Shown here in pieces: positions 124-22,265 of a DNA stretch of 30,117 bases. Position numbers and translations under genes: made by a program. The stretch is from an uncultured bacterium. GTDB lineage: Bacteria > Pseudomonadota > Gammaproteobacteria > Burkholderiales > SG8-39. The stretch is from contig CAWUMP010000001.1 of assembly GCA_963923385.1 (NCBI GenBank), forward strand, positions 1-30,117, in the 5' to 3' direction. The notes below the pieces were generated by a model. That model did not search any database. It had not been told where the DNA came from and saw only the letters and a program-made list of their open reading frames with translations. The first letter of the stretch is position 1; every line of letters begins with the position of its first letter.

Positions 124-155
124 TACTTTGGGTGCTACTTCGAGGTCACCACAAG

Positions 156-1184
156 ATGATGCAGAACACCATTCGCTGTTTGATCGCCGCCTTAGGTTTA
201 TCGCTAGCCCTAACGAACGGCGCACGCGCTGCCGATATCACCGGCGCTGGCGCCACCTTCCCGTTTCCCATCTACGCCAAGTGGGCTGAGGAATACAAAA
301 AGGTGTCCGGCAATGGTTTGAATTATCAGTCGATTGGTTCCTCGGGTGGTATCCGTCAAATCCGCGCCAAAACTGTGACCTTTGGTGCAACCGATGCCCC
401 GCTCACCGCAGACGAATTACAAAAAGATGGTTTAGTGCAATTTCCAGCCATCTTGGGCGGGGTGGTGCCAGTGATCAATCTTGAGGGCTTTACCCCAGGT
501 GAGTTACGGATCAATGGCGAAGTTTTGGCTGAGATTTTTATGGGCACCATCACGCAATGGAACGATAAAAAACTCGAGGCACTGAATCCCGGTAAAAAAC
601 TCCCCAACATGGCCATCACCGTCGCGCATCGCGCCGATGGTTCGGGCACCACGTTTATTTTTACCGACTACTTAAATGAAGTAAGTCCCGCTTGGGCTAA
701 GGCTGTTGGTAAAGGTGCTGCGGTGAAGTGGCCAGCCGCTTCATCGGTGGGTGGCAAAGGCAATGAAGGCGTTGCTGCTAACGTAATGCGCGTCAAAGGC
801 GCCATCGGATATGTGGAATACGCATACGCCAAGAAAAACAAAATGGGCTATCTCACCATGCAAAATCGCGACGGCAAATTTGTCGCACCCGATGACCTCA
901 CCTTTGCTGCCGCTGCAGCCGGCGCAGATTGGAAGAGCGTCCCTGGCATGGGGCTGTCGCTCGTGAACTTAAAAGGTGCCAATGCATGGCCCATCACCGG
1001 CGCATCGTTTATTTTGTTATTTGCGCAACCAGCCAATGTGGCTGATTCAAACGAAGCCCTAAAGTTCTTCGATTGGTCGTTTAAGAACGGCAAAAAAATG
1101 GCCGAAGACTTAGACTACGTTGCGCTGCCAGATGCGGTCACCAAATACATTCGTGAATCGGTGTGGACGCAAATCAAACGCTAA
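156..1184 (+). CDS. pstS: Phosphate ABC transporter substrate-binding protein PstS
   Basis: Signal peptide, then ITGAGATFPFPIYAKW, YQSIGSSGGI, FGATDAPL, HRADGSGTT, GGKGNEGV, WPITGASF. Start moved from GTG 132 to ATG 156 (159 also possible), after GAGG at 142-145. Confidence 0.97.
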   Translation: MMQNTIRCLIAALGLSLALTNGARAADITGAGATFPFPIYAKWAEEYKKVSGNGLNYQSIGSSGGIRQIRAKTVTFGATDAPLTADELQKDGLVQFPAILGGVVPVINLEGFTPGELRINGEVLAEIFMGTITQWNDKKLEALNPGKKLPNMAITVAHRADGSGTTFIFTDYLNEVSPAWAKAVGKGAAVKWPAASSVGGKGNEGVAANVMRVKGAIGYVEYAYAKKNKMGYLTMQNRDGKFVAPDDLTFAAAAAGADWKSVPGMGLSLVNLKGANAWPITGASFILLFAQPANVADSNEALKFFDWSFKNGKKMAEDLDYVALPDAVTKYIRESVWTQIKR

Positions 1185-1192
1185 CGCAGCGT

Positions 1193-1223
1193 TGCGCACA
1201 ACGCCTTGAGTTCGTTGTGCGCA
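1193..1223 (+). other. Intercistronic stem-loop between pstS and pstC
   Basis: Perfect 11-bp inverted repeat TGCGCACAACG (1193-1203) / CGTTGTGCGCA (1213-1223) with a 9-nt loop and no clean U-tract directly after it. Confidence 0.7.
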
Positions 1224-1268
1224 TTTGCGCTTTGTTACATCACCAACGCACCCTGAGATTACCCTTCG

Positions 1269-2279
1269 ATGTCTGCACTTCCTGAATTCAGCACGTCGTC
1301 ATTCGCCGCATCGGCCCAGCTTGCCGATGCCGGGCGATTGCGCAAAGCGCGCATACAAAACGTGCAGGATTTTTTATTTCATAAAATCACCCTGCTGTTT
1401 GCGCTCAGCGTCCTGATCACCTTGATCGGCATCCTCGCTTCGCTGGTCATCAACGCTTGGCCAACCCTACATCGTTTTGGTCCTGCGTTTTTTTACACCG
1501 TTGAGTGGGACATTATCCGCGGCGAATTTGGCGCAGCCATCGCCATCTTTGGCACGCTCGCGAGCGCGAGTATTGCACTGGCTATTGCTGTACCCTTGAG
1601 TTTTGGTGTTGCGCTTTTTTTAACTGAAACCTGTCCAGTGTGGTTACGCAGACCACTCGGCACTGCGGTCGAATTGCTCGCTGCGGTGCCTTCGATTATT
1701 TACGGCATGTTTGGTTTGTTTATTTTTGCCCCGTTGTTTGCTGAGTACGGTCAGCCAGCGCTGCAATCCACCCTAGGACAAATGCCCTTGATTGCGCCTT
1801 TTTTTGGTGGAGCGATGAACGGCATCGGCATTCTTGCTGCGGGTTTAATTTTATCGATCATGATCTTGCCCTTCATCGCCTCGGTGATGCGCGACGTGTT
1901 TGAAATTGTTCCACCCATCTTGCGTGAGTCGGCCTATGGCTTAGGTTGCACCACCTGGGAAGTGATGCACAACATCGTGCTGCCTTTTACTAAAACTGGC
2001 GTGATCGGCGGCATCATGCTTGGCCTTGGACGCGCCTTGGGTGAAACGATGGCAGTTACGTTTGTGATTGGTAATTCACAACGCATCGGCATGTCATTGT
2101 TTTCTCCGGGTAGCTCAATTGCATCAACGCTGGCCAATGAATTTGGTGAAGCCGATGGCTTACATCTGTCGAGTTTATTTGCGCTCGGCTTAGTGCTGTT
2201 CTTTATCACCTTCGTTGTGCTCGCTGCTGCCAAGTTATTACTTGCACGCATGGAACGCAGTCAAGGAAGCAAAACCTAA
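1269..2279 (+). CDS. pstC: Phosphate ABC transporter permease PstC
   Basis: Multi-TM protein with ELLAAVPSIIYG, EAA-type loop RESAYGLGCT, GLGRALGETMAV, IASTLANEFGEA; follows pstS. Confidence 0.96.
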   Translation: MSALPEFSTSSFAASAQLADAGRLRKARIQNVQDFLFHKITLLFALSVLITLIGILASLVINAWPTLHRFGPAFFYTVEWDIIRGEFGAAIAIFGTLASASIALAIAVPLSFGVALFLTETCPVWLRRPLGTAVELLAAVPSIIYGMFGLFIFAPLFAEYGQPALQSTLGQMPLIAPFFGGAMNGIGILAAGLILSIMILPFIASVMRDVFEIVPPILRESAYGLGCTTWEVMHNIVLPFTKTGVIGGIMLGLGRALGETMAVTFVIGNSQRIGMSLFSPGSSIASTLANEFGEADGLHLSSLFALGLVLFFITFVVLAAAKLLLARMERSQGSKT

Positions 2280-2293
2280 CCGCGACCACATCC

Positions 2294-3142
2294 ATGGACC
2301 TTGCACGCTACCAACGCCGACGTCGTATCAATCAAGTTGGACTGACGCTCTCCATGCTGGCCATGGTGCTGGGTCTGTCTGTTTTACTCTGGATACTCGC
2401 ATTGCTATTTTACAAAGGGCTCTCAGCATTGAGTTGGGATTTCTTTTTTGCATCCACACCGGCGCCAGGCTCGGACGGTGGTGGCTTAGCCAACGCGATT
2501 GTTGGGAGCGTGATGTTGGTGGGTAGCTGCACGCTGATCAGCACACCGATTGGCGTACTGGCTGGCGTGTATCTGGCTGAGTACGGTGATCGCAGTCCAA
2601 TTGCTGGCGTGACCCGATTTGTTTCGGACATCATGTTGTCGGCGCCCTCGATCGTGATCGGCTTATTTGTGTATGCCATCGTGGTTGCACAGGTCAAACA
2701 TTTTTCGGGATGGGCAGGCACACTCGCCCTATCGTTAATTGCCATTCCCGTGGTGGTTCGCACCACTGAAAATATTTTGCGTCTTGTCCCTGGCAGTTTG
2801 CGCGAAGCCGCCTTTGCGCTGGGTGCACCGCGTTGGAAAGTCGCCATCATGGTGACATTGCGTGCCGCCAAGTCAGGCATCATGACCGGTGTGTTGCTTG
2901 CTTTAGCGCGTGTCAGCGGCGAAACCGCACCGCTACTCTTCACTGCCCTTAGTAATCAATTTTTCTCGCTCGACATGAATCGCCCGCTGGCCAATTTACC
3001 AGTGGTGATTTTTCAATTCGCGATGAGCCCTTATGAAAACTGGATCAAGCTGGCTTGGGGTGGTGCGCTATTGATCACCATGGTGGTGTTACTCATCAAC
3101 ATCATCACCCGATTATTTTTCCGCGAAAAAGTTTCTGCATAA
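2294..3142 (+). CDS. pstA: Phosphate ABC transporter permease PstA
   Basis: GGGLANAIVGS, APSIVIGLF, LREAAFALGA, LARVSGETAPLLFT; operon position. Confidence 0.96.
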   Translation: MDLARYQRRRRINQVGLTLSMLAMVLGLSVLLWILALLFYKGLSALSWDFFFASTPAPGSDGGGLANAIVGSVMLVGSCTLISTPIGVLAGVYLAEYGDRSPIAGVTRFVSDIMLSAPSIVIGLFVYAIVVAQVKHFSGWAGTLALSLIAIPVVVRTTENILRLVPGSLREAAFALGAPRWKVAIMVTLRAAKSGIMTGVLLALARVSGETAPLLFTALSNQFFSLDMNRPLANLPVVIFQFAMSPYENWIKLAWGGALLITMVVLLINIITRLFFREKVSA

Positions 3143-3173
3143 CACCGCACAGTAGTGCACCAAGGATAAGCGC

Positions 3174-4019
3174 ATGAACACCACAATCGAAGCCCAAAGC
3201 GCCGCACCAAAAACGACGCGCTTTTCAACCGAGCCGCCGGTGGCTGCTGCAGCGACCGCGCCGCTTCCGCTCGCCATTCAAACTGTCGGCTTAAATTTTT
3301 TTTATGGCACCTTCCAGGGCCTAAAAAATATCAATCTCGATATCGCCGAAAACAAAGTCACCGCATTTATTGGGCCCTCGGGCTGCGGCAAGTCCACGCT
3401 TTTGCGCACCATGAACCGCATGTACAGCCTCTATCCGGGACAACGCGCCGAAGGACAAATTAATTTCTACGGACAAAATATTTTGGATCCCAAACAGGAT
3501 CTAAATTTATTGCGCGCTCGCATTGGTATGGTGTTTCAAAAACCCACGCCATTTCCAATGTCCATTTACGACAACATTGCTTTTGGTATCAAGCTCTACG
3601 AAAACTTATCTCGCTCTGCGCTCACCGAACGCGTCGAATGGGCTTTACGTAAAGCAGCAATCTGGGATGAAGTCAAAGATAAGCTTGGGCAAAGCGGTTT
3701 ATCGTTATCTGGTGGGCAGCAACAACGCTTGTGTATCGCACGTAGTATTGCAGTGCGTCCGGCGGTGTTGTTGTTAGACGAGCCTACCTCAGCCTTAGAT
3801 CCCATTTCTACCGCCAAAGTTGAAGAGCTCATGCATGAGCTTAAAAGTGAGTACACCGTCGCGATCGTGACGCACAACATGCAACAAGCAGCGCGTGTTT
3901 CGGATTTCACCGCTTACATGTACTTAGGCGAGATGATCGAATTTGGTAAGACCGATGAGATTTTCATCAAGCCAAAAAAGAAAGCCACTGAAGACTACAT
4001 CACCGGCCGTTTTGGTTGA
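3174..4019 (+). CDS. pstB: Phosphate ABC transporter ATPase PstB
   Basis: Walker [26 protein letters not shown], signature LSGGQQQR, Walker [14 protein letters not shown]-terminal [10 protein letters not shown]. Confidence 0.98.
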
Positions 4020-4057
4020 GACGTGCATTTCACCCCTAGGCGGGTGACAATTGGGGC

Positions 4058-5275
4058 ATGCAGCCTGCCCCCGCAAACACACGGTTGATCGTTGCGCTAG
4101 GCACCACGCAAACTTTAGCGTGGGCCTCGAGCTATTACCTGCCTGCCATGTTGGCCGCACCGGTATCGCGCGCGCTAGGTATCGAGAATGCATTTTTCTT
4201 TGCCGCATTTTCTGGCGCGCTGATTGTGGCGGCACTCATTGGCCCACTGGTCGGCCGCGCAGTCGATCGCGCTGGTGGTCGCAACATGTTGTGCGCTTCA
4301 AACGTGGTGCTTGCGGTTGGGTTGAGCTTACTGGCCATGACACAACACGTGCCAATGTTGATCTTTGCGTGGGTCGTGCTTGGTATTGGGATGGGCATGG
4401 GGTTGTACGACACCGCATTTGCCACATTGACGCGCATCTATGGCACAGCAGCGCGCGGTCCGATCACGGGCATTACCTTGATTGCGGGTTTTGCCAGCAC
4501 CATCGGCTGGCCCATCACCGCCAGCATCGACGCTACTTTGGGTTGGCGTAGTGCGTGCATCACTTGGGCGGTGATTCATCTGTTGGTGTGCTTACCCATC
4601 AACGCATGGTTACTACCTCGTACCAAAAAATTATCGAGCGCCGCGACATCGTCACCATCGATCACCGCCGCCCATGACGCGACCACCGTCGCTCTATCTT
4701 CATCCATCGACACACAGCGCCCGCGTCAACCTTGGCCATTGATGATGTTACTTGCCGCGATATTTGCAGCCACTTGGTTTGTGACGGGCGCCATGGCCAC
4801 GCATTTGCCAAGCCTGTTACTACAAGCCGGTGCCAGCACCGCGCAAGCGATTGCGTTTGCAGCGTTGGTTGGTCCGGCCCAAGTGGCCGCACGGATTGTT
4901 GAGTTCACGCTACTCAAACACATTCATCCGGTGGTGTCGGCACGTATTGCCACCGCACTACATCCGTTGGGTTATGCCGCGCTGTGTTTTCTCGGTCCGG
5001 CGGGCTTGGCCGCGTTTGCGGTATTGCACGGCGCAGGTAACGGTCTACTCACGATTGCGAAAGGCACTTTGCCGCTTGCACTACTTGGCGCAACAGACTA
5101 CGGGTATCGGCAAGGCTTGATTGGACTGCCTGCACGCTTTACGCAAGCCCTCGCCCCTGTGTTGTTTGGCTTTTTAGTGACCCGCTTTGGTGCAGACGCA
5201 CTCGCCATTTCATCCGCACTCACGCTGATGGCGTTTATCACGCTGTGGTTTGTTGGGCGACGCGCTGCGGTGTGA
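4058..5275 (+). CDS. MFS transporter with ArsK-family-like motifs, substrate unknown
   Basis: 405 aa hydrophobic protein with MFS motif A-like GRAVDRAGGR, TLIAGFASTIGWP and VCLPINAW, and an S/T/A-rich central linker. The MFS call is solid; the ArsK resemblance is from recalled motifs only. Confidence 0.85.
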   Translation: MQPAPANTRLIVALGTTQTLAWASSYYLPAMLAAPVSRALGIENAFFFAAFSGALIVAALIGPLVGRAVDRAGGRNMLCASNVVLAVGLSLLAMTQHVPMLIFAWVVLGIGMGMGLYDTAFATLTRIYGTAARGPITGITLIAGFASTIGWPITASIDATLGWRSACITWAVIHLLVCLPINAWLLPRTKKLSSAATSSPSITAAHDATTVALSSSIDTQRPRQPWPLMMLLAAIFAATWFVTGAMATHLPSLLLQAGASTAQAIAFAALVGPAQVAARIVEFTLLKHIHPVVSARIATALHPLGYAALCFLGPAGLAAFAVLHGAGNGLLTIAKGTLPLALLGATDYGYRQGLIGLPARFTQALAPVLFGFLVTRFGADALAISSALTLMAFITLWFVGRRAAV

Positions 5276-5317
5276 TAAGTTCTGTCCGAGCCCTATTTTT
5301 GTACCGGAGACCCCACC

Positions 5318-6382
5318 ATGAAGCGCACTGCTATTACGCTCGCCTTACTGAGCGCTGCCGTTGTTGTTCAAGCCCAAACCCTCCCCGCAGGTCCCAAAGT
5401 GACGGTGAGTGCGGTGACTCAAGTCGCGCCAACCGTGCCGCAGTACACCCGCATCGATATTCCGATGCTGCGCGAAGACGTCCCCAAGCGTAGCGGTGGC
5501 CGCGTTGAAGTCAATTTAAAAAGCTGGCCCGAGATGAGCGTGCAAGGTCCGGAGGTGATTCGTTTGGTGCGCTCAGGTCAAGTTGATTTAGGCGCAGCGC
5601 CGCTCACCACCGTGTCAGGTGATGTGCCATTTTTAGATGGCATTGATTTAGCTGGGCTCGCGCCTGAGCTCGACACCGCGCGCAAAATCGCCAACGTGTT
5701 GGTGCCGATTGCCAATAAAGATCTTGAACGCATCGGCGTGAAACTTGTGGCAACGTATCCGTTTCCTGCGCAAGTGTTCTTCTGCAAAAAGCCCATCGCG
5801 AGCTTGGCTGATTTAAAAGGCATGAAGGTGCGCACCAATGGTCCATCAGCCTCAGACTTAGTGAGCTTTTTAGGTGGTCAACCTGCAGCGATTGCATTTG
5901 GTGAGGTGTACACCGCACTCGAGCGCGGTACGGTCGATTGCGCAATTACCGGTACCGGGAGCGGCAACGGCGTGAAGTGGTACGAAGTGACTAGCCACCT
6001 GTACACCTTATCCACCGCTTGGTCGACTTCTGGCTACTTTGTGAACCTGGCGTGGTGGAATAAGCTCGACCCACAAGTGCGTGCCTTCATGGAAAAAACC
6101 ATGAGCGGCATTGAAGACGCGCAATGGAAACTCGGTGCCGAAGTCACACAAGATGGTATCGATTGCAATATCGGCAACGCTGCTGGTTGCAAGCTTTACA
6201 CGCTAGTCAAAAATAAACCCATGGTGCAAGTCAAGGCCACCGAGGCCGATCGCGCGAAATTGCGTGAGGCGCTCACCGCTACCGTGTTACCGGGTTGGGT
6301 GAAACGCTGCGGCGCGCGTTGCGGCGAAATCTATAACCAAGCCATCGCGCCAATTTCTGGTGTGAAATACGTCGCGCAGTAA
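5318..6382 (+). CDS. dctP: TRAP transporter substrate-binding protein (DctP family)
   Basis: Signal peptide MKRTAITLALLSAAVVVQA, ADLKGMKVRT, FGEVYTALERGTVDC; adjacent small and large TRAP subunits; GGAG RBS. Confidence 0.93.
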   Translation: MKRTAITLALLSAAVVVQAQTLPAGPKVTVSAVTQVAPTVPQYTRIDIPMLREDVPKRSGGRVEVNLKSWPEMSVQGPEVIRLVRSGQVDLGAAPLTTVSGDVPFLDGIDLAGLAPELDTARKIANVLVPIANKDLERIGVKLVATYPFPAQVFFCKKPIASLADLKGMKVRTNGPSASDLVSFLGGQPAAIAFGEVYTALERGTVDCAITGTGSGNGVKWYEVTSHLYTLSTAWSTSGYFVNLAWWNKLDPQVRAFMEKTMSGIEDAQWKLGAEVTQDGIDCNIGNAAGCKLYTLVKNKPMVQVKATEADRAKLREALTATVLPGWVKRCGARCGEIYNQAIAPISGVKYVAQ

Positions 6383-6383
6383 T

Positions 6384-6402
6384 TTTTAAACGATCGTTGT
6401 TT
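6384..6402 (+). repeat. Copy 1 of an approximately 20-bp motif with palindromic core AACGATCGTT
   Basis: TTTTAAACGATCGTTGTTT in the dctP-dctQ gap; a near-identical inverted copy lies at 12727-12746. Confidence 0.4.
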
Positions 6403-6403
6403 C

Positions 6404-7045
6404 ATGAATTCGTGTGTCGTGCTCAGTGTGCTCCGCGCCATCAACCGTCGCGTGGACGCACTGGCACGTGGCATGAGTCGCTGCGCCGGATGGATGTTCG
6501 TGTTGTGTGCCGCTTACATCACGCTCGATGTAATCGCGCGACGTTTTTTGGGTTTTTCTTCGCAAGCCACCACAGAGTTATCCGGATACATGCTCGGCGT
6601 GGGCATCGCTTGGGGATTAGCCGGGGCCCTGGAAGCACGCACGCATGTGCGTATTGATATTTTGATTCAACGCATCGCGCCCAAATGGCGACGCTATTTA
6701 CATGCGCTCGCCTTAGCGAGTTTGATGGTATTTGCCGCGTTCTTGGTTTATGGCGCGTGGCACACCACCGAAGAATCATGGGATTTTCGTGCCACCGACA
6801 ATAGCTTATTAAAAACACCGCTGGTGATTCCGCAAGGCTTGTGGCTCATCGGTATCGGCGTGTTTGGGTTGATGACGTTATTGCGATTACTTGAAGTGTT
6901 ATTGCTGCTACCCAGCGCCGACATTGGTGAAATCGAGCAACTCACCGGTCCGCGCAGTTATCTTGAAGAAGCCGACGAAGCACTTGAAGCCATCGGTGCC
7001 GCACAAAAGTTGATGGCTGCTGAATCGCAGGAAAAGCGCGCATGA
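6404..7045 (+). CDS. dctQ: TRAP transporter small permease (DctQ)
   Basis: About four TM segments, LDVIARRF, ELSGYML, HVRIDIL; position between dctP and dctM. Exact start uncertain. Confidence 0.9.
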   Translation: MNSCVVLSVLRAINRRVDALARGMSRCAGWMFVLCAAYITLDVIARRFLGFSSQATTELSGYMLGVGIAWGLAGALEARTHVRIDILIQRIAPKWRRYLHALALASLMVFAAFLVYGAWHTTEESWDFRATDNSLLKTPLVIPQGLWLIGIGVFGLMTLLRLLEVLLLLPSADIGEIEQLTGPRSYLEEADEALEAIGAAQKLMAAESQEKRA

Positions 7046-8415
7046 TTGCCGTTGTTTTTCTGTTGATCCTCCTTGCGGTCTCGTTCGGTGCGGTGTTATT
7101 TGGCGGCGGTTCGATCAGTCAATTACCGATCGGTCCGTTGTTACTATTAATTGGTTTGTTCTGCGTATTTTTTGGTGCAGGCATTTACATTGCTGCTGCA
7201 CTCGGTGTGTTGGGCATCATCGCCGGATTTGCATTTTCCGATCGACCTTTTTGGGATTTCATCGGACAAATGGTGTGGGGCCCCACCACCAACTTTGTGC
7301 TCGTTGCCGTACCACTGTTTTTGCTGATGGGCGAAATCATGTTGCGCGCGGGCCTGTCTGACAAACTGTATCGCGGCTTAAACCTCTGGTTTCAACGCGT
7401 ACCGGGTGGCTTACTCCACACCAACATTGTTTCATGCAGTGTGTTTTCTGCGATCTCAGGATCGAGTGTGGCAACCGCCGCCACCATGGGCGCCGTCGCA
7501 TTGCCCTATTTTCGTCAAACCGCCTATGCTCCATCGATGGTGTTGGGATCACTTGCAGCGGGTGGTGCGCTTGGCAATTTAATCCCACCAGGTATCACCT
7601 TCATTGTCTACGGCCTGATCACTGAAACGTCCGTTGGCAAACTGTATTTAGCTGCGGTGGGTCCCAGTATTTTGGTGGTACTGCTGTTCACTGCGCTGAT
7701 CTTTGTACATGGCTTGCGTCATCCCTTGCCACAACCGGCTGCGATTCCACTGAAGCAAAAATTACTTGGCCTGATTGATCTCATCCCGACGCTCATTTTA
7801 ATTTTAGTGGTGCTCGGCACCATCTACACTGGTTTAGCCACGCCCACCGAATCCGCTGCACTGGGTGTGATTGCCGCCATTGTGTTTGCGCTACTATCTG
7901 GCCGCTTTAGCTGGAAGATGCTCAACGAATCCGCAGAATCTACCGCGCGCACCACCGCGTTTATTGGCTTAATTTTATGTGGCGCGTACATTTTGAATTA
8001 CATCTTTGGTAGCTTGGGTGTGCCACAAGCCCTCGCAAAGTTTGTGGCCGGACTGCCTGTACCGCCGTGGGTGATCATGGCGCTGATCATTGGTTTTTAT
8101 CTTGCTTTAGGTACGTTCATGGAAGGCTTTTCGATGATCGTGACCACGATTCCCGTCATCTTTCCGGTCGTTAAAGCCCTTGGCTATGACCCGATTTGGT
8201 TTGGTGTGATCGTCACCATGTTGGTTGAAATTGCGCTGATCAGTCCACCCGATGGCACGGTGCTATATGTGCTGCAAGGCATGCGTGGCACACCCGGGCC
8301 AATCACCGATGTGTTTCGTGGTGTGGTGCCCTTTATGGTCGCATATGTATTTGCAGTCGCTATCTTGATGTTGGTGCCTGAACTGGCCTTGTGGCTACCA
8401 CGCGTGATGCAATAA
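7042..8415 (+). CDS. dctM: TRAP transporter large permease (DctM)
   Basis: LVAVPLFLLMGE, FSAISGSSVATAA, AGGALGNLIPP, GLATPTESAALG, ISPPDG; ATGA overlap with dctQ. Confidence 0.94.
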   Translation: MIAVVFLLILLAVSFGAVLFGGGSISQLPIGPLLLLIGLFCVFFGAGIYIAAALGVLGIIAGFAFSDRPFWDFIGQMVWGPTTNFVLVAVPLFLLMGEIMLRAGLSDKLYRGLNLWFQRVPGGLLHTNIVSCSVFSAISGSSVATAATMGAVALPYFRQTAYAPSMVLGSLAAGGALGNLIPPGITFIVYGLITETSVGKLYLAAVGPSILVVLLFTALIFVHGLRHPLPQPAAIPLKQKLLGLIDLIPTLILILVVLGTIYTGLATPTESAALGVIAAIVFALLSGRFSWKMLNESAESTARTTAFIGLILCGAYILNYIFGSLGVPQALAKFVAGLPVPPWVIMALIIGFYLALGTFMEGFSMIVTTIPVIFPVVKALGYDPIWFGVIVTMLVEIALISPPDGTVLYVLQGMRGTPGPITDVFRGVVPFMVAYVFAVAILMLVPELALWLPRVMQ

Positions 8416-9018
8416 ATGACCATGCAAACCAACCTGCCACGCTTTCGGCGTTACATCCAGGACATGACGCAACTGGTCAGCCAACACGGTGACGATGAAC
8501 CCACCGTACTCGCGCGCGGCGAAGTGCTGCTCAAAGCGCTGATCGATCACGATGACTGGTTACCCGTTGCCTTTACGGTGCCCTCAACGGAGGGCTATCG
8601 GCAATATTTGTTGTATTGCGATCCGCTCGAGCGTTTTTCGGTGGTGAGCTTTGTGTGGGGCCCCGGGCAGAACACACCAATTCATGATCATCAGGTATGG
8701 GGCTTGATTGGCGTACTGCGCGGTGCAGAACAATGCGATGAGTACACGCAAAGCAACAGCACGCTCACCGCGTGTGGATCGCATCGCATCAACCCCGGTG
8801 AAATCGACAAAGTGTCGCCCACTCTTGGTGATATCCACGTGGTGTCGAATGCGTATACCGATCGCGCGTCGATCAGTATTCATGTGTATGGTGGCAACAT
8901 CGGTGCAGTGCGGCGACATGTATTTGATCCGGTCACTGGCGCGCCGCGCACCTTTATTTCTGGCTACCACAACAGCGTCATGCCCAATTTATGGGATCGC
9001 TCTAAAGAAACCCCGTGA
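8416..9018 (+). CDS. Thiol dioxygenase of the cysteine dioxygenase family, Gln-type (3-mercaptopropionate dioxygenase-like)
   Basis: Cupin motifs WGPGQNTPIHDH (H-x-H), third His in GDIHVVSN, SIHVYG; YRQYLL has Gln where cysteine-specific CDOs have Arg (Y-x-R). ATG directly follows the dctM TAA. Confidence 0.88.
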   Translation: MTMQTNLPRFRRYIQDMTQLVSQHGDDEPTVLARGEVLLKALIDHDDWLPVAFTVPSTEGYRQYLLYCDPLERFSVVSFVWGPGQNTPIHDHQVWGLIGVLRGAEQCDEYTQSNSTLTACGSHRINPGEIDKVSPTLGDIHVVSNAYTDRASISIHVYGGNIGAVRRHVFDPVTGAPRTFISGYHNSVMPNLWDRSKETP

Positions 9019-10490
9019 ACGCACCAGAGCTTGCTGCAGTACTCGATTGGGATCATCGCTTCACCCGCTTGCCCGAAACGTTTTACACACGCCTCGTACC
9101 CACGCCGCTACCCGATCCATATTTAGTGGCGTTTAACCCAGATGCCGCTGCATTGATTGGTTTAGATGCGCAGGCCGCGCGTCACCCCGCGTTCATCGAA
9201 ACATTGATTGGTAATCGCGTACCGAGCGGTGCCGATCCTTACGCAGCCATTTACGCCGGGCATCAATTTGGGACGTTCGTCTCGCAACTCGGCGATGGCC
9301 GCGCCATTACATTCGGCGATGTACGCGGCCCCGATGGTCGACATTGGGATATCCAACTCAAAGGCGCCGGACAAACGCCGTACTCACGTATGGGTGATGG
9401 CCGCGCTGTGCTACGTTCATCGATTCGCGAATACCTTTGCTCTGAGGCCATGCATGGTCTTGGGATCCCAACCACGCGAGCGCTGGCAATTGTTGGCAGC
9501 AATGCACGGGTACGGCGCGAACAATTTGAAACCGCCGCAGTGGTCACACGCATGGCACCGTGTCATGTGCGTTTTGGATCGTTTGAACTGTTTTATCACC
9601 GTCGTCAATACGCCGAAGTGCGGCAACTTGCCGATTGGGTCATCGACGAACACCTACCGCAACTGCGCGATCAAACGCAAGCTTACGTGGCCTTGCTCGA
9701 CACGGTGGTTACACGCACCGCGCAACTGATAGCGCAATGGCAAGCCGTGGGCTTTTGCCATGGCGTCATGAATACCGACAACATGTCGATTCTCGGACTC
9801 ACGCTCGATTATGGCCCGTTTGGATTTTTAGATGGCTTTGACGCCCATCACATCTGCAACCATTCAGATGATCGCGGTCGATATGCCTACGACATGCAAC
9901 CACGGGTAGCGCAATGGAATTTATATTGCCTAGGGCAAGCACTGTTGCCGCTGATGGATATCGAGCAAGCAGAACACACCCTCGAGCAATTTACCGAACG
10001 CTATCGCTTAGCGTACGAAACCCGCATGCGCCATAAATTGGGGCTGGTGACTGCACACACTGATGACCCCATCCTGATCAGCGACTTACTCGACTTAATG
10101 CACGCATCGCGCACCGACTTCACGCGGTTTTTTCGCGCACTCGCTGATTTTTCATTGAACGCATCTAGTCAAAGTGCATTACGTAATGAATTTGTCGACC
10201 GCGATGCCTTTGATGCATGGGCACAACGTTATGCCGCGCGCTTAACGCAAGAAGCGCGCGACACCCAGGCGCGTCGTGTCGCGATGCTGGCCACCAACCC
10301 GTGTTACGTTTTACGTAATTGGATGGCAGAAGAGGCCATTCAACGCGCGCGCGACTTAGGTGATTACGGCATGATTCGCGAGCTGCATCAATTGTTACGC
10401 ACACCCTTTACCGAACAAGAAGGTATGCAACGTTACGCGGCGCTGCCACCAGATTGGGCCACACATATTTCGGTGAGCTGTTCTTCTTAA
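9015..10490 (+). CDS. selO: Protein adenylyltransferase SelO (YdiU)
   Basis: YAGHQFG, QLGDGRA, QLKGAGQTPYSRMGDGRAVLRSSIREYLCSE, HGVMNTDN, DYGPF, C-terminal VSCSS; GTGA overlap with the upstream stop. Confidence 0.96.
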   Translation: MNAPELAAVLDWDHRFTRLPETFYTRLVPTPLPDPYLVAFNPDAAALIGLDAQAARHPAFIETLIGNRVPSGADPYAAIYAGHQFGTFVSQLGDGRAITFGDVRGPDGRHWDIQLKGAGQTPYSRMGDGRAVLRSSIREYLCSEAMHGLGIPTTRALAIVGSNARVRREQFETAAVVTRMAPCHVRFGSFELFYHRRQYAEVRQLADWVIDEHLPQLRDQTQAYVALLDTVVTRTAQLIAQWQAVGFCHGVMNTDNMSILGLTLDYGPFGFLDGFDAHHICNHSDDRGRYAYDMQPRVAQWNLYCLGQALLPLMDIEQAEHTLEQFTERYRLAYETRMRHKLGLVTAHTDDPILISDLLDLMHASRTDFTRFFRALADFSLNASSQSALRNEFVDRDAFDAWAQRYAARLTQEARDTQARRVAMLATNPCYVLRNWMAEEAIQRARDLGDYGMIRELHQLLRTPFTEQEGMQRYAALPPDWATHISVSCSS

Positions 10491-10512
10491 AATTTTTTTC
10501 ATCAGGTGCTTA

Positions 10513-11268
10513 ATGGATCTACAGATCGCCAATAAAACCGCACTCGTGACTGGCGCTAGCACGGGCATTGGTCGCGGCATTGCCAAAGCGCTTGCAGCCG
10601 AAGGAGTACATGTGGCGATTGCTGCACGTCGCACGTCACTGTTACATGAACTCGCCGCAGAAATTGTGGCCGATGGCGGTCAATCTCCGGTGGTGATTGC
10701 CTGCGATCTTTACGCCGACGATGCGGCACGCACCTTGGCCAGTCACGCACTCGACGGTTTAGGTAGCGTGGATATTTTGATCAACAACGCCGGTGGCTCG
10801 CGCGCCTTTAGTGATTTACATGTCTCGGAAGAACGTTGGCAAGAAGCGATGACCTTAAATTTTCATCGGCCACGTCAATTAGCCGATGTGTTGATCGATC
10901 AAATGATTGCTCGCAAATGGGGCCGTATTATCAATATCACCGGTAAAAGCGAACCCGATCATGTGAATGGTGCGTTCTGCGCCAAAGCCGGCATTCATAG
11001 CTGGGCCAAAGGACTGTCGCGTATGGTGGGTAAGCACGGCATCACCGTCAATTGCATTCCACCCGGACGCATTCACTCCGAACAAATCTTGCGCAACTAC
11101 ACGCCAGAATATCGTCAGTGGCAAGCCGACAATGAAATTCCGATGGCGCGTTATGGCGAACCCGAAGATCTCGCCAATTTAGTGTGTTTTCTGGCCTCGC
11201 CTCGCGCAAGTTACATCACAGGTGCAGTCATTCCCGTGGATGGTGGATTACGTCGTTATCAGTTTTAG
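10513..11268 (+). CDS. Atypical short-chain dehydrogenase/reductase (no YxxxK tyrosine)
   Basis: TGASTGIGRG nucleotide-binding motif, AARR, INNAGG, NCIPPGRI, VDGG; the catalytic segment reads AFCAK. Confidence 0.9.
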   Translation: MDLQIANKTALVTGASTGIGRGIAKALAAEGVHVAIAARRTSLLHELAAEIVADGGQSPVVIACDLYADDAARTLASHALDGLGSVDILINNAGGSRAFSDLHVSEERWQEAMTLNFHRPRQLADVLIDQMIARKWGRIINITGKSEPDHVNGAFCAKAGIHSWAKGLSRMVGKHGITVNCIPPGRIHSEQILRNYTPEYRQWQADNEIPMARYGEPEDLANLVCFLASPRASYITGAVIPVDGGLRRYQF

Positions 11269-11282
11269 TGGTACGTCACACT

Positions 11283-12281
11283 GTGCGAGCAAATCTTTCT
11301 CTGCGCTTGTATCGCTGCATTCTGCAGTGTGGTTGCGCCATGGTTGTATTGAGTTTGAGTGCGTGGTGTATCGCGCAACCTCAGTGGCCCAACAAACCCA
11401 TTCGTTTGGTGGTGCCCTTTGCACCTGGAGGGACCTCTGAAATCGTAGCGCGCACCGTGGCCAATGAACTTGGCCGGCAATGGGGCGAAACCGTGGTGGT
11501 TGAAAACAAACCCGGTGGCGCAGGCACCGTGGCGATGCAAGATGTGGCGCGCGCGGCGCCCGATGGCTACACACTCATTCTTGGTCACGTGGGCACGTTG
11601 GCAGTCAATCCCTACATGCTCAACAATCAACCTTACGATGTGAATCGTGATTTTCAGCCCATCACGTTGTTGGCCAAAGTGCCGAATGTGTTTGTGATTC
11701 ACCCAAATGTACCGGCTAAAGATTTTCGAGAATTTGTGGCCTACGCCAAACGTAATCCTGGACGCATGAATTACGGTTCTGCAGGAAACGCCAGTGCCGG
11801 CCATCTGGCAATGGAATATCTCAAACTCGTGACTGGTATGTTTATCACGCACATTCCGTATCGAGGCACCGGACCGCAACTGACCGACTTGTTAGCCGGA
11901 CGCACCGAAGCTTCATCAGCGGGCTTGCCTGCGTTGGCACCACACATCAAATCAGGCAAATTGCGCGCGATTGCTGTGGGCACACAACAGCGCATTCCGG
12001 CCTTACCCGACATACCGACTGTGGCAGAACTGGGCTACCGCCACTTTGAAACTGCGCAGTGGTACGGCTTACTCGCCCCGGCGGGGATCCCCAGTGATAT
12101 TGCTCGACGCATCCAAGAGGACACGCAAAAGGCGTTACGTGCAAACGCCGTGACCGAACGCTTTGCAGCAGACAACGCCCTACCCGGCGGCGGCCCAGCT
12201 GTTGAATTTGCCAACTTCATCACCCAAGAACAAAAAATCTGGAGCGACATCGTACGTCGCGCAAAAATTAAACCAGATTAA
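11283..12281 (+). CDS. Bug/TctC-family tripartite tricarboxylate transporter substrate-binding protein
   Basis: WPNKPIRLVVPFAPGG, VVVENKPGGAG, APDGYTL, YGSAGNASAGHL, HIPYRGTGP. The ORF-track start 11184 overlaps the SDR; GTG 11283 or ATG 11340 is more plausible. Confidence 0.93.
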   Translation: MRANLSLRLYRCILQCGCAMVVLSLSAWCIAQPQWPNKPIRLVVPFAPGGTSEIVARTVANELGRQWGETVVVENKPGGAGTVAMQDVARAAPDGYTLILGHVGTLAVNPYMLNNQPYDVNRDFQPITLLAKVPNVFVIHPNVPAKDFREFVAYAKRNPGRMNYGSAGNASAGHLAMEYLKLVTGMFITHIPYRGTGPQLTDLLAGRTEASSAGLPALAPHIKSGKLRAIAVGTQQRIPALPDIPTVAELGYRHFETAQWYGLLAPAGIPSDIARRIQEDTQKALRANAVTERFAADNALPGGGPAVEFANFITQEQKIWSDIVRRAKIKPD

Positions 12282-12343
12282 TTATTAGTAAAGCCAAAAT
12301 AAAAAATTAGATTTTCCAGTCAGCGATCTTGCGTAGCAACGAC

Positions 12344-12488
12344 TCACTGACTTCTCGCCTTCTCCTGCAACCAAATTTTTAGCAGCGATTGATAAGCTAC
12401 ATCACGTGCGTTGGCAGCCATCTTCAGCGAATCGAGTAAATGCTGTGGCAGGCTCAGTGAGATTGTCTTTGTCGTTGCCCTTGGGCAT
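12344..12488 (-). pseudogene. Remnant of a BrnA/CopG-type ribbon-helix-helix antitoxin gene
   Basis: Manual minus-strand translation 12478-12344 gives ATTKTISLSLPQHLLDSLKMAANARDVAYQSLLKIWLQEKARSQ*, matching the recalled BrnA-family C-terminus (KPTTKTISLRLP..LL..K..AN.RDVPYQSL.K.WL.E). In-frame stop at 12496-12494; the nearest upstream ATG (12488) is one base out of frame. Not in the ORF track. Confidence 0.75.
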
Positions 12489-12568
12489 TTCCTTCATCCC
12501 AGTTAAAGCCCGGGATTTAGGTGAGGTCAATGATTATTTTTTTGTATTACCATCATGTACAAGTGTGA

Positions 12569-12604
12569 GTCTGCTGAAGGGTCTGCTGAAGGTTTTGCCG
12601 AAGG
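12569..12604 (+). repeat. 12-bp tandem repeat, 3 units
   Basis: GTCTGCTGAAGG at 12569-12580 and 12581-12592 (identical), TTTTGCCGAAGG at 12593-12604 (degenerate). Confidence 0.75.
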
Positions 12605-12726
12605 CTCTCGCCCGCCTCATTTCGATCAGAAGAACGGGCGTCCACCCCAAACATCAAGCGCGTGAGCAACGCTAGAACTGCCGCAGTTTCAACCAAGAAC
12701 GCCGAGAAAACTCCTTAACCACAGAT

Positions 12727-12746
12727 AACCAACGATCGTTTTAAAA
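12727..12746 (-). repeat. Copy 2 (inverted) of the motif with core AACGATCGTT
   Basis: The reverse complement reads TTTTAAAACGATCGTTGGTT; it differs from 6384-6402 by one indel and one mismatch. Confidence 0.4.
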
Positions 12747-12780
12747 GCCTCGGTGGATGTCCAATGACGGGCTGCCCACT

Positions 12781-12786
12781 TACAAT
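12781..12786 (+). promoter_or_regulatory. Candidate sigma70 -10 element (TACAAT) for mutS
   Basis: TACAAT ends 16 bp before ATG 12803; no convincing -35 seen. Confidence 0.35.
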
Positions 12787-12802
12787 AGTGCCCGTGACCT
12801 CC

Positions 12803-15361
12803 ATGACCGCGCCAACACCCGCCGCACACACCCCAATGATGCAGCAATACCTCGCCCTCAAGGCCGCGGTGGTGCGCGATCACGGTGACATCTTGCTGTT
12901 TTATCGCATGGGTGATTTTTACGAGTTGTTTTTTGAAGACGCAGAAAAAGCCGCGCGATTACTCGACATCACATTAACTGCACGTGGCGCCTCTGCCGGT
13001 CAGCCAATCAAAATGGCCGGTGTGCCATTTCACGCCGCCGAGCAATATTTGGCGCGCTTGGTCAAGCACGGTGAATCAGTCGCGATTTGCGAACAAGTCG
13101 GAGATGTTGCAACCAGTAAGGGACCTGTCGAACGCAAGGTAGTGCGCATCGTCACACCCGGCACGCTTACCGATGCCGCCTTGTTAGATGACAAAGCCGA
13201 GAGCTTATTGTTAGCTATCTCGGTTGAACCCAACAGCATTGGTTTAGCTTGGTTATCGCTGGCCAGTGGCGCGCTGCGTGTGACGGAGATTGCACCTCAA
13301 GCGCTGTTGAGTGAGTTGCGCCGCATTGGTCCGGCCGAAATCTTGCTCGCTGCCGAGAGCCTCGATGAAACAGTACTACATGGATTTTCATTAACGCATC
13401 TTGCCGCGTGGCAATTTGATCGCGCTGCTGGCGAGCGCCAATTACTTGATCAGTTCAAGACCAATTCATTGGCCGGTTTTGGTTGCGAAGATCTCGGGCC
13501 CGCCATTGGCGCATGCGGAGCGCTGTTGGATTACGCACGCAAAACACAAGGGCAATCGTTAGCGCATGTGGTGTCACTCACAGCCGAACGCAGTGGTGCG
13601 TTTGTGCGACTCGATCCAGCCACCCGTCGCAATCTCGAACTCACCGAAACACTGCGCGGCGAAGCTGCGCCGACGTTGTTTTCGTTGATGGATGTCTGCG
13701 CAAGCAGCATGGGCAGCCGACTGTTACGTTATTGGCTACACCATCCATTGCGCGATCGGGACACGCTGCAAGCGCGTCACGCAGCCATTGCGATGCTACA
13801 AAACACCGCGCAGCATATTTTGCAGGCCTTGCGACAAATTTCTGATCTGGAGCGCATCACCGCGCGCGTGGCGCTCAAGAGTGCGCGGCCACGGGATCTG
13901 TCTAGCCTACGCGATAGCCTTGCGCAGTTGCCGCAGCTCGCGCAACAACTGCCGCATCAAGACGCGTTACTACAAGCAATCGCTGCGCAGCTATCTCGCA
14001 CGCCCAATTGCCTCGCAACACTCACGCAAGCCATCGCACCCGAACCGTCTGCACGTATCCTAGATGGTGGAGTGATTGCCGAGGGCTATCACTCCGAGCT
14101 CGATGAATTGCGTCGCTTACAAACCAATGCCGGTGAGTTTTTGCTCGAACTCGAAACCCGCGAACGCACACGTACAGGTATTGCCAATCTGAAGGTGGAA
14201 TACAACCGGGTGCATGGGTTTTATATTGAGGTCACCAACGCACAAACCGAAAAAGTGCCCGACGATTACCGCCGCCGGCAAACGCTCAAAAATGCTGAGC
14301 GTTACATCACGCCAGAATTAAAAGCGTTTGAAGATAAAGCGCTCTCGGCACGTGATCGTGCACTGGCGCTCGAAAAATCGTTGTACGACGCGCTGCTTGA
14401 GCAACTCGCGCCAGATGTGCCAGTGTTACTTGAACTGGCGCGCGCCGTGGCACAACTCGATGTACTGTGTGCGTTTTCACAACTCGCGCAATTGCATCAG
14501 TGGTGCGCACCGCAGTTTGTCCAAGCGCGTTTTCTCGATATTCAAGCCGGTCGACATCCGGTGGTCGAAGCGCAAGTCGAGCAATTTATTGCCAACGACA
14601 CGCGCTTAAGTAACACGCGCCAACTGCTGTTAATCACGGGCCCCAACATGGGTGGTAAATCGACCTACATGCGTCAAGTGGCGTTGATTACGTTGCTCGC
14701 CCATGTGGGTAGCTTTGTACCTGCCACCGCGGCGCGTATCGGGCCAATTGACCAAATCTTTACGCGTATTGGTGCCTCCGATGATCTGGCTGGGGGTCGC
14801 TCTACGTTTATGGTCGAGATGACCGAAGCGGCCAATATTTTGCATAACGCCACCGAACACAGTTTGGTGCTGATGGACGAAGTAGGACGCGGCACCTCAA
14901 CCTTTGATGGCTTAGCACTCGCGTGGGCGATTGCGCGTCATTTACTTGAACATAATCGCGCGTTGACTTTGTTTGCCACGCACTACTTCGAGCTCACACG
15001 CATCAGTCAAGATTATCCGCAAGCCGCGAACGTGCATCTCGACGCCATTGAGCATCAAGATCGGATTGTGTTTTTGCATGCCGTTGAAGAAGGTCCCGCC
15101 TCACAAAGTTACGGACTCCAAGTAGCGGCGCTCGCTGGTGTGCCCAAGAGCGTGATTCGTCAAGCGCGTCGCACCCTTCAACAGCTCGAAGACAACGCCC
15201 CCAACCGCAGTGCGCAAACAGATTTATTTACCGTCAGCGCCGAACCCGAACCAACCGAACCCGCTATCGATCCTATGCGTGCGGCACTGACGCAAGTCAA
15301 TCCAGATACACTCACGCCGCGCGATGCGCTTGAATTACTTTACCGATTAAAGGTCCTATGA
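12803..15361 (+). CDS. mutS: DNA mismatch repair protein MutS
   Basis: [19 protein letters not shown] mismatch-binding motif, [14 protein letters not shown] Walker [32 protein letters not shown], clamp-binding-like QTDLF. Start 12803 preferred over 12764. Confidence 0.98.
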
Positions 15362-19627: not shown

Positions 19628-19652
19628 GAACGTTGACCTAACTTGTGTGCGT

Positions 19653-22144: not shown

Positions 22145-22200
22145 GGGAATTGTTTTCCGCTTGTGATGCGGCTAGCCGAGATAGCCGGTGACCAAAAGGT

Positions 22201-22206
22201 TACAAT
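22201..22206 (+). promoter_or_regulatory. Candidate sigma70 -10 element (TACAAT) for the arn operon
   Basis: TACAAT in the divergent alaC/arnT region; a TAGCCG direct repeat with 10-bp period lies upstream (22172-22177, 22182-22187). No clear -35. Confidence 0.3.
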
Positions 22207-22265
22207 TTTACGCGAGCTTCGCTGCTCACCGACACACTTTGCTGCAATCTCTGACGGAACTACCT

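Follow-up and report, generated by a model that had tools for sequence, protein, structure and literature searches.

A gene for a 3-mercaptopropionate dioxygenase (MDO) and a gene for the protein adenylyltransferase SelO overlap by four nucleotides in a stretch of DNA from an uncultured Burkholderiales bacterium. Comparison with related genomes points, on balance, to a lineage-specific MDO-selO pair as the only conserved unit of the locus, in which case the rest of the gene string would be a mosaic of neighbors packed together in a streamlined genome. No paper describing an mdo-selO link was found in a literature search, in agreement with an earlier note on this DNA, which knew of none. The window is the whole analyzed stretch of 30,117 nt. 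Its source genome (G000) measures 2.5 Mb with 53% GC, and the congeners have 4-5.8 Mb with 66-70% GC.

Gene content and junctions

ORF and profile annotation places seven genes, from dctP through the gene of a Bug receptor, on the plus strand (Table 1), and this annotation together with direct reading of the sequence confirms both the gene content and all the junctions given in the earlier note. By direct reading, dctQ and dctM overlap in an ATGA at 7042-7045, the ATG of MDO at 8416 abuts the TAA stop of dctM (8413-8415), and the GTG of selO overlaps the TGA of MDO. This GTG is the sole start codon in the open frame 5' of the conserved SelO region. A gap of 22 nt separates selO from the SDR gene, whose TAG stop shares 1 nt with a possible GTG start of the Bug gene; the next in-frame ATG lies 71 nt further.

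Table 1. Features at and next to the MDO-selO locus, in window coordinates
Feature	Coordinates	Strand	Basis
MFS transporter, monocarboxylate / oxalate-formate-like	4058..5275	+	Pfam MFS_1
TRAP solute-binding protein DctP	5318..6382	+	PF03480, E 3e-32
TRAP small membrane subunit DctQ	6404..7045	+	PF04290, E 2.4e-20
TRAP large membrane subunit DctM	7042..8415	+	PF06808, E 2e-79; TIGR00786, 312 bits vs cutoff 268
3-mercaptopropionate dioxygenase (MDO; Gln-type cysteine dioxygenase homolog), 200 aa	8416..9018	+	matches to solved MDOs
GTGA overlap, MDO stop / selO start	9015..9018	+	direct reading
SelO/YdiU protein adenylyltransferase, 491 aa	9015..10490	+	PF02696, E 5.6e-140; NF000658
SDR-family protein without catalytic tyrosine	10513..11268	+	adh_short and adh_short_C2 matches
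Bug/TctC periplasmic receptor	11268 (GTG) or 11340 (ATG)..12281	+	PF03401, E 1.4e-75

The dioxygenase and SelO

Enzymes of the MDO family use Fe(II) and O2 to oxidize the thiol of 3-mercaptopropionate to 3-sulfinopropionate, a reaction that the dioxygenase of this locus would share. In Gln-type homologs, Gln replaces Arg60, the substrate-carboxylate residue of mammalian CDO. Judged by its solved relatives and catalytic residues, the cupin encoded directly after dctM is a Gln-type 3-mercaptopropionate dioxygenase; the earlier note had made the same call, which is borne out by its matches to solved MDOs (E 1e-63 to 1e-65) and by invariant catalytic residues. The protein aligns over its full length with the solved MDOs of Pseudomonas and Azotobacter (E 3.9e-65 to 6xb9, 1.3e-63 to 3uss/4tlf). 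H90, H92 and H141 align with the three-His Fe(II) ligands of 3uss/6xb9, the counterpart of Q63 in the P. aeruginosa enzyme is Gln62, SISIHVYG carries the Ser-His-Tyr outer-sphere triad (S154, H156 and Y158), and VWGLIG has Gly (G96) at the site of the mammalian CDO Cys that is cross-linked to Tyr. The His ligands, the triad, the Gln and the Gly are thus shared with the MDOs of P. aeruginosa (3uss/4tlf) and A. vinelandii (6xb9), and all these residues, together with R167, are invariant in the MDO alignments A1 and A2. Pfam CDO_I scores 20.7 bits, below its cutoff of 23, and so it is the solved relatives that carry the assignment. At the position of G96, the aligned 4wvz chain reads Cys (vwClig) and the wild-type 3uss chain reads Gly.

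SelO scores 467 bits with PF02696 and 608 bits with NF000658 (cutoff 431), and it matches P. syringae SelO (6eac) at E 1.6e-159 with the HGVMNTDN block and the C-terminal CSS present. The 6eac alignment, with HGVMNTDNMSILG..D and a terminal SCSS, leaves the active-site block intact. Like the SelO/YdiU AMPylases of P. syringae (6eac) and E. coli (6iii), the SelO of the window is therefore full-length and intact, and as the single match in G000 it is the only copy in that genome. To our knowledge, few bacterial SelOs have been assigned physiological cues and targets.

Conservation of the MDO-selO junction

The neighborhood comparison across the genus shows that the mdo-selO link is kept in close relatives together with its stop/start overlap. 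The relatives are MAGs, and an apparent gene break in one of them (G010) is a run of N. Eighteen genomes of the genus were sampled, and in each of them selO or a selO remnant lies directly downstream of MDO; a 4-nt NTGA overlap joins the two genes in 17 of the 18 (16 of the 17 analyzed plus the remnant in G001). The N-terminal tail of SelO varies in length by up to about 28 codons across the genus, always in frame. The upstream flanks of the pair vary among AMP-ligase, AMP-ligase with amidase, AMP-ligase with TRAP, MFS with CoA-transferase, and MFS with TRAP, and the downstream flanks are either ank/msrB/bolA/ppi or SDR/Bug/mutS; the junction is constant throughout.

A separate start context is missing from selO, and throughout the SelO clade its start codon overlaps with the stop of the gene that precedes it. 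Since selO lacks such a context, SelO would be made from the mRNA of MDO by ribosomes terminating on MDO, and the two genes are likely co-expressed. In this the selO of the window differs from published SelO neighborhoods, as it overlaps the upstream gene and has no separate start context. A published analysis of SelO neighborhoods (ProFaNA) ties SelO to oxidative-stress genes and redox homeostasis, in agreement with the selO-msrB-bolA-ppi block found in relatives; a CDO/MDO, SelR or BolA neighbor of SelO is absent from the main text of that paper (PMC10364804).

Probable origin of the pair

Among 78 MDO loci sampled outside the genus or family, none has selO. A 527-aa four-domain rhodanese lies downstream of MDO in 18 of the 78 (Pseudomonas, Azomonas, Azospirillum and Paraburkholderia), so that MDO of the Pseudomonas type is followed by a rhodanese whereas MDO of the window is followed by selO. 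CoA-transferase and/or crotonase (ECH) genes flank MDO in 17 of the 78 unrelated loci, all without selO. By this comparison, bacterial MDO genes fall into two settings that recur, one with the rhodanese and the other with CoA-transferase/crotonase. The Variovorax paradoxus TBEA6 cluster comprises mdo, act, acdA and ech-20/-30, and SelO is not reported there (PMC6370202). MDO thus sits among organosulfur-acid catabolic genes in that cluster, as it does in those relatives that carry a family-III CoA-transferase directly upstream of MDO (G003 and G045) or a crotonase directly downstream (G022 and G045). In contrast to TBEA6, which has act and ech, MDO of the window adjoins neither a CoA-transferase nor a crotonase. 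The ORFs of the window scanned, up to 25075, include no CoA_transf_3 gene, as expected from the earlier note, to which no CoA-activation gene had been recognizable. In G000 as a whole, we found only weak matches to the rhodanese (E 4e-8) and no close ortholog, and the search for the MDO-linked CoA-transferase of G003 returned no close ortholog, the best of 21 paralogs being 38% identical.

The two genes also occur apart. Genera g5, g30 and g40 of the family have MDO and no SelO, and g26 has SelO and no MDO; by these gene contents, the distribution of MDO over the genera of the family is independent of that of SelO. In a genome of another family (G033) the order is selO-msrB-bolA-ppi. The four genomes of g34 have ECH-selO-msrB-bolA-ppi, where ECH and selO share 20 nt. 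The order is CoA-transferase-MDO-ECH-selO in G045 and MDO-ECH-selO in G022, where the contig ends inside MDO, and ECH and selO overlap by 14 nt in both. Hence selO overlaps the crotonase gene in three sister genera (g34, g6 and g28) and MDO in the genus of the window.

These arrangements would best be explained if a cassette of 3-mercaptopropionate catabolism, CoA-transferase-MDO-crotonase, had landed 5' of an older selO-msrB-bolA-ppi block for protein oxidation repair. MDO and selO would then have come to adjoin because the cassette landed upstream of the resident selO-msrB block. In g34, the CoA-transferase and MDO would have been lost from the site, leaving crotonase-selO, and in the genus of the window the crotonase would have been lost, leaving MDO-selO. 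In the low-GC lineage of G000 and G004 the msrB block would also have been replaced by SDR-Bug-mutS. The TRAP system is most likely an importer of the 5-oxoproline type that was inserted upstream and then repeatedly lost. The order of these events is given by parsimony, because the SelO tree leaves the branching of g1, g6, g28 and g34 open. SelO is most likely a general redox-stress AMPylase that happens to share the expression of MDO, and is unlikely to be dedicated to thiol catabolism. If the pair is merely a historical accident of this kind, the finding is an ordinary one.

It is also evident that the pair and its exact overlap persist across SelO sequences that diverge by about 35% and across three or more flank contexts, an observation that points against such an accident. 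Persistence of this degree exceeds that usual for simple synteny, and selection for purposeful co-expression could account for it. MDO and SelO might then form a dedicated pair, in which SelO AMPylates MDO or thiol-sensitive enzymes, or replaces a rhodanese or crotonase partner, and the overlap sets their co-expression. Such a pair would fit the retention of the NTGA overlap through several rearrangements, the position of SelO in the slot held by rhodanese or crotonase in other MDO loci, the reported tie of SelO to redox homeostasis, and the company that selO keeps in other relatives with msrB, a sulfur-oxidation repair gene. Moreover, because G000 lacks a rhodanese ortholog and a close ortholog of the CoA-transferase, the two usual partners of MDO, a role may have passed to SelO. 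However, the linkage apparently arose once, to judge from its absence at the other MDO loci, and selO overlaps whatever gene lies upstream, a crotonase gene in the three sister genera. The independent distribution of the two genes argues in the same direction, as does G001, which retains an intact MDO beside a decayed selO and carries another selO, 44% identical, elsewhere. Furthermore, as the sole copy per genome, SelO must also serve the general function of the family. We thus regard a dedicated pair as unlikely, and hold at still lower probability the specific version in which SelO was recruited and translationally coupled to MDO and AMPylates MDO or thiol- or sulfinate-sensitive enzymes during the turnover of thiol to sulfinate. 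If recruitment of SelO to 3-mercaptopropionate oxidation were true, it would be the first defined metabolic trigger for a bacterial SelO. The likely genus-wide tie of selO translation to a thiol dioxygenase provides a concrete condition, exposure to 3-mercaptopropionate, under which targets can be hunted.

Changeable neighbors of the pair

The earlier note had proposed an operon that imports a thiol- or disulfide-carboxylate, oxidizes it and co-expresses SelO to protect or regulate enzymes under thiol stress. Spelled out as a system of five parts, TRAP (with Bug) would be the importer, MDO would oxidize the substrate and the SDR would process a product. The seven genes are indeed co-directional, with gaps of at most 22 nt from dctP to Bug, and within the genus TRAP-MDO-selO is found with two different sets of flanking genes. 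Uptake of thiodipropionate by TRAP and TTT (TctC) transporters has also been proposed in Variovorax (PMC6370202, PMC8102459). However, the genes further upstream, pstSCAB and the MFS gene, are spaced just as tightly, and the neighbors prove changeable. DctPQM is complete, with PF03480, PF04290 and PF06808 all above their cutoffs, and the dctM-mdo junction is as the earlier note described it, but the pairing is not constant: TRAP adjoins MDO in 7 of the 18 genomes of the genus and in none of the 78 other MDO loci. Its presence is patchy even between sister genomes. DctM is 89-91% identical among the genomes of the genus that retain TRAP, G002 has a 54-residue DctM remnant, and G007 has a damaged TRAP copy with an internal deletion.

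The substrate of the transporter may also lie elsewhere. Orthologs of DctP with 83-86% identity are found in G085 within a D-Glu cyclase-TRAP-oxoprolinase operon and in G052 near a D-Glu cyclase, and a non-sulfur substrate is suggested by these positions in or near a D-glutamate-cyclase/5-oxoprolinase operon. G000 itself carries both D-Glu cyclase and 5-oxoprolinase on contig C58. The nearest solved relatives of DctP, though distant (E 1e-22), are 2pfz/2pfy of the pyroglutamate-binding subfamily, Bordetella pertussis receptors that were crystallized with pyroglutamate (Rucktooa et al. 2007, as cited in PMC5812351). The DctP substrate is therefore probably 5-oxoproline-like and not a thiol, a reading that rests on two ortholog contexts and distant structural relatives. 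The earlier note had named a non-sulfur DctP substrate as contrary to its own proposal, and the ortholog context and the pyroglutamate relatives appear to approach that outcome.

As for the other two members, SDR and Bug accompany MDO-selO only in G000 and G004 among the 18 genomes, which argues against their being parts of a system. The SDR has TGASTGIG and NNAG, and the position of YxxxK reads AFCAK (GAFCAKAG), with no catalytic Tyr. Bug looks like an orphan receptor because no TctA/TctB was found among the neighboring genes scanned. A constant thiol-acid importer and a system of five parts are thus both improbable, and the lineage-specific MDO-selO pair with changeable TRAP, SDR and Bug neighbors is the better description.

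In a streamlined genome, close packing can make unrelated genes resemble one system. Because the genome is small and no gap between pstS (132) and Bug (12281) exceeds 84 nt, spacing alone says little; what is above chance here, as the genome comparison indicates, is not the close spacing but the MDO/selO overlap conserved in distant, uncompacted relatives. That there is no functional unit at all, the overlaps reflecting compaction and a TGA stop after a purine or T, with MDO and selO expressed independently, would agree with these short gaps, with the lack of promoter- or terminator-like signals above shuffled controls and with alternative selO starts further downstream in G007, G011 and G012, but it is very doubtful given that the overlap persists in the large, GC-rich congeners, that the reading frame of selO extends uninterrupted to the MDO stop even where the tail differs in length, and that AGGAG stands 6-7 nt 5' of the selO start in most relatives.

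The MFS gene, which lay outside the locus as delimited in the earlier note, is a conserved upstream neighbor in the subclade of G000, G004 and G003, and its ortholog in G003 (63%) lies upstream of CoA-transferase-MDO-selO. If any neighbor carries the thiol acid or the sulfinate, this transporter would be the better candidate. Its assignment as ArsK was rejected (NCBIfam ArsK, 226 bits vs cutoff 400), and it also has weaker matches to L-lactate and oxalate/formate MFS transporters.

A conserved overlap between MDO and selO

The plus strand of the window bears an unbroken run of co-directional genes from pstSCAB through the Bug receptor gene, followed by mutS. The junctions described in the earlier note were all found, namely ATGA at dctQ/dctM, TAA followed by ATG at dctM/cupin, and GTGA at cupin/selO, and its close spacing of the SDR gene holds as well, with a gap of 22 nt after selO. 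The GTG at 9015 is the sole possible start of the selO frame. A promoter and terminator scan of positions 3900-12900 gave no signal exceeding shuffled expectation, and no family was returned by an Rfam search of the window.

Genes of the co-directional run in the window
Feature	Position	Strand	Remark
pstSCAB	132-4019	+	
MFS gene	4058-5275	+	monocarboxylate / oxalate-formate-like group
dctP	5318-6382	+	
dctQ	6404-7045	+	
dctM	7042-8415	+	
CDO-like cupin (MDO)	8416-9018	+	200 aa
selO	9015-10490	+	
SDR	10513-11268	+	
Bug/TctC receptor	11268 or 11340 to 12281	+	
Gap Bug/mutS	12282-12763		~480 nt; the only substantial non-coding gap in this region

The cupin scores 20.7 bits against Pfam CDO_I, below the cutoff of 23, and its full-length alignments with solved 3-mercaptopropionate dioxygenases (MDOs) from A. 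vinelandii and P. aeruginosa have E values of 1e-63 to 1e-65. All three His ligands and the Ser-His-Tyr triad are present, Gln63 corresponds to Gln62 of the P. aeruginosa enzyme, and Gly96 replaces the cross-linking Cys; judged by its sequence, the cupin is a genuine MDO of the Gln type. The window SelO is intact and complete in length; it matches P. syringae SelO at E = 1.6e-159 and carries the HGVMNTDN block and, at the C terminus, CSS. In the SDR the cofactor motifs are intact and the Tyr position of YxxxK is Phe (GAFCAKAG), which makes the label "atypical" a fair one. A complex prediction for SelO and MDO, using the genus alignments A3 and A2, returned a score of 0.00, which counts neither for nor against a complex.

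MDO and SelO were searched in 40 related genomes, and the loci were then fetched and read by tblastn with the window proteins, together with Pfam on selected ORFs; ORF calling is unreliable in the relatives of 66-70% GC, where long spurious and antisense ORFs arise. Open frames of 588, 692 and 511 aa around MDO, which suggested MDO fusions, are likewise high-GC artefacts. The earlier note had proposed examining the neighbours of selO in close relatives, and these keep selO directly after MDO: each of the other 17 genus genomes has selO or a selO remnant immediately downstream on the same strand. G001 is the sole genus genome in which SelO is not single-copy. An NTGA overlap, in which ATG, GTG or TTG lies over the MDO TGA, is present in 16 of the 17 genomes analysed and also in the G001 remnant; the exception is G008, where the selO ATG lies 2 nt past the MDO TAA. 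The N-terminal tail of SelO varies in length by up to ~28 codons, always in frame, and most relatives show AGGAG 6-7 nt upstream of the selO start, inside the last MDO codons. Since the stop/start overlap is kept across the genus, co-translation of MDO and selO is very probably a conserved property of the genus, of which compaction of the window's own genome (G000) would not be the sole cause. Co-expression of the two proteins is likewise very probable.

In G001, MDO is intact and the linked selO is a pseudogene (L044:8301-8945) with an in-frame TAA, no N in the sequence, and large internal deletions that take out the catalytic block. A second selO on another contig (G001:C74:9515-10972) is 44% identical and resembles the clade common in other genera; it looks like one SelO clade was replaced by another. 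A seemingly broken MDO in G010 was considered as a case of independent decay; the break is a 159-nt run of N, so it was withdrawn as evidence.

Variable flanks and genome compaction

Flank contexts were compared by explicit gene lists, single-linkage clustering having chained distinct contexts. In the main high-GC clade the order is sulfatase<, AMP-ligase>, amidase> or TRAP>, MDO>, selO>, ankyrin<, msrB>, bolA>, ppi> (>, same direction as MDO and selO; <, opposite). In G003 it is pstCAB ... MFS>, family-III CoA-transferase>, MDO>, selO>, and in G000 and G004 it is pstSCAB>, MFS>, TRAP>, MDO>, selO>, SDR>, Bug>, mutS>. The MDO/selO junction is thus constant while the flanks vary. TRAP adjoins MDO in 7 of the 18 genus genomes. 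G002 retains a 54-residue dctM remnant, and matches to TRAP in G007 (L034:5887-8148) are limited to DctQ residues 6-55 and DctM residues 88-457, which suggests a deletion spanning the dctQ/dctM boundary that took away the last part of dctQ and the first part of dctM. TRAP-positive and TRAP-negative genomes are sisters in the SelO tree (G007/G017, G011/G012 and G013/G002), indicating that TRAP was lost repeatedly. Among genus genomes, SDR and Bug follow selO in G000 and G004 only.

From pstS to Bug, all gaps in the window are ≤84 nt over 12 kb. G000 is 2.5 Mb in size with 53% GC and its congeners are 4-5.8 Mb with 66-70% GC; G004, its closest relative, is 2.7 Mb and is placed in the same genus. 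G000 and G004 look like a streamlined, AT-shifted sublineage with collapsed intergenic gaps, and the tight spacing is general in this part of the window, where neither a promoter or terminator signal nor an Rfam family sets off an operon. Of the five-part system that had been proposed for the use of thiol- or disulfide-carboxylates, the MDO-selO link with its overlap stands as conserved in the genus, whereas the neighbourhood made up of TRAP, SDR and Bug varies; the five parts are not upheld as a system, and selO rides on whatever gene precedes it.

Origin of the linkage

In a species-representative genome scan, 80 MDO loci were found, 78 of them outside the genus. Only two of the 80 have selO or TRAP near MDO, and both are from the window's genus. 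Among the remaining 78, two neighbourhood types predominate, and they are almost mutually exclusive. In the first (18 loci, in Pseudomonas, Azomonas, Azospirillum, Paraburkholderia and others), MDO is followed by a 527-aa four-domain rhodanese. In the second (17 loci, mostly Burkholderiales), a family-III CoA-transferase lies upstream and/or a crotonase (ECH) downstream of MDO. Loci of the second type match parts of a characterised cluster, that of Variovorax paradoxus TBEA6 (PMC6370202), in which mdo is accompanied by act (CoA-transferase), acdA (desulfinase) and several crotonase genes.

In the family sample of 151 genomes, SelO forms two clades, A in the window's genus (g1) and the genera g6, g28 and g34, and B in most other genera, with 59-68% and 43-49% identity to the window SelO, respectively. 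The four g34 genomes (L147-L149, L151) show ECH>, selO>, msrB>, bolA>, ppi>, with MDO absent nearby; between selO and msrB the opposite strand carries a gene of the carboxymuconolactone-decarboxylase family. G045 (g28) has CoA-transferase>, MDO>, ECH>, selO, and G022 (g6) has MDO>, ECH>, selO, with the contig end falling inside MDO; in G041, the second genome of that genus, the contig end is too near selO to show MDO. In g34, selO and the 3' end of ECH share 20 nt; in g6 and g28 they share 14 nt. G033 belongs to another family and has selO>, msrB>, bolA>, ppi (L140:4743-8364). The selO-msrB-bolA-parvulin PPIase block links SelO with methionine-sulfoxide repair genes. It is common to different families of the order and is also seen in G014 (L037:3572-8980).

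Because the SelO tree does not settle the branching order of g1, g6, g28 and g34, we infer the following history as the simplest account. A CoA-transferase-MDO-ECH cassette would have been inserted upstream of a resident selO-msrB-bolA-ppi block; CoA-transferase and MDO would then have been lost from the selO site in g34; and loss of ECH in g1 would have let the MDO stop overlap with the selO start. The MDO-selO pair seems to have arisen once, and it represents a variation on known MDO cassettes that is specific to this lineage. An obligate partnership is contradicted by related genera in which each gene occurs without the other: MDO without SelO in g5, g30 and g40, and SelO without MDO in g26 (MDO tallies include the unpublished G143, affecting only g5 and family-total counts). 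It is unlikely, though conceivable, that SelO is dedicated to thiol oxidation. A literature search for a link of SelO with MDO or cysteine dioxygenase found no description, and the MDO-SelO link appears to have been described by nobody so far.

Substrate of the TRAP importer

DctP has only distant solved relatives, of which 2pfz and 2pfy are the best; these were crystallised with pyroglutamate, according to PMC5812351. G085 and G052 have DctP orthologues of 81-86% identity in a tandem dctP-dctP-dctQ-dctM layout, with MDO on other contigs. In G085 (L156:3437-13651), TRAP is flanked on one side by the gene for a D-glutamate cyclase and on the other by that for a 1202-aa fused hydantoinase A/B 5-oxoprolinase. 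All of these are on a single strand with gaps of ~10 nt, and a LysR gene, also on this strand, is found just upstream; in G052 the D-glutamate cyclase is 2.8 kb from TRAP. Contig C58 of G000 carries an oxoprolinase (76% identical) and a cyclase (61%). Because of this orthologue context, the pyroglutamate-bound DctP relatives and the two genes on C58, we lean towards a 5-oxoproline-type importer. The context and the relatives thus bring TRAP near to a non-sulfur substrate, which the earlier note had itself named as counting against its thiol importer. The MFS protein, whose gene also lies beside the cassette in G003, may, speculatively, be a better carrier candidate for the thiol acid or its sulfinate.

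The G085 locus is in its own right a candidate TRAP-dependent operon for utilisation of 5-oxoproline, possibly the D-form. In the window, pstSCAB is directly followed by the MFS gene, an order similar to that in G003, and the PhoU family had no match among the scanned window genes (ORFs up to 25075). Further along, at 18215-25075, the minus strand carries threonine synthase, homoserine dehydrogenase and a class I/II aminotransferase, and the plus strand an ArnT-like glycosyltransferase and a DegT/ArnB-type aminotransferase, which are genes of aminoarabinose lipid A modification.
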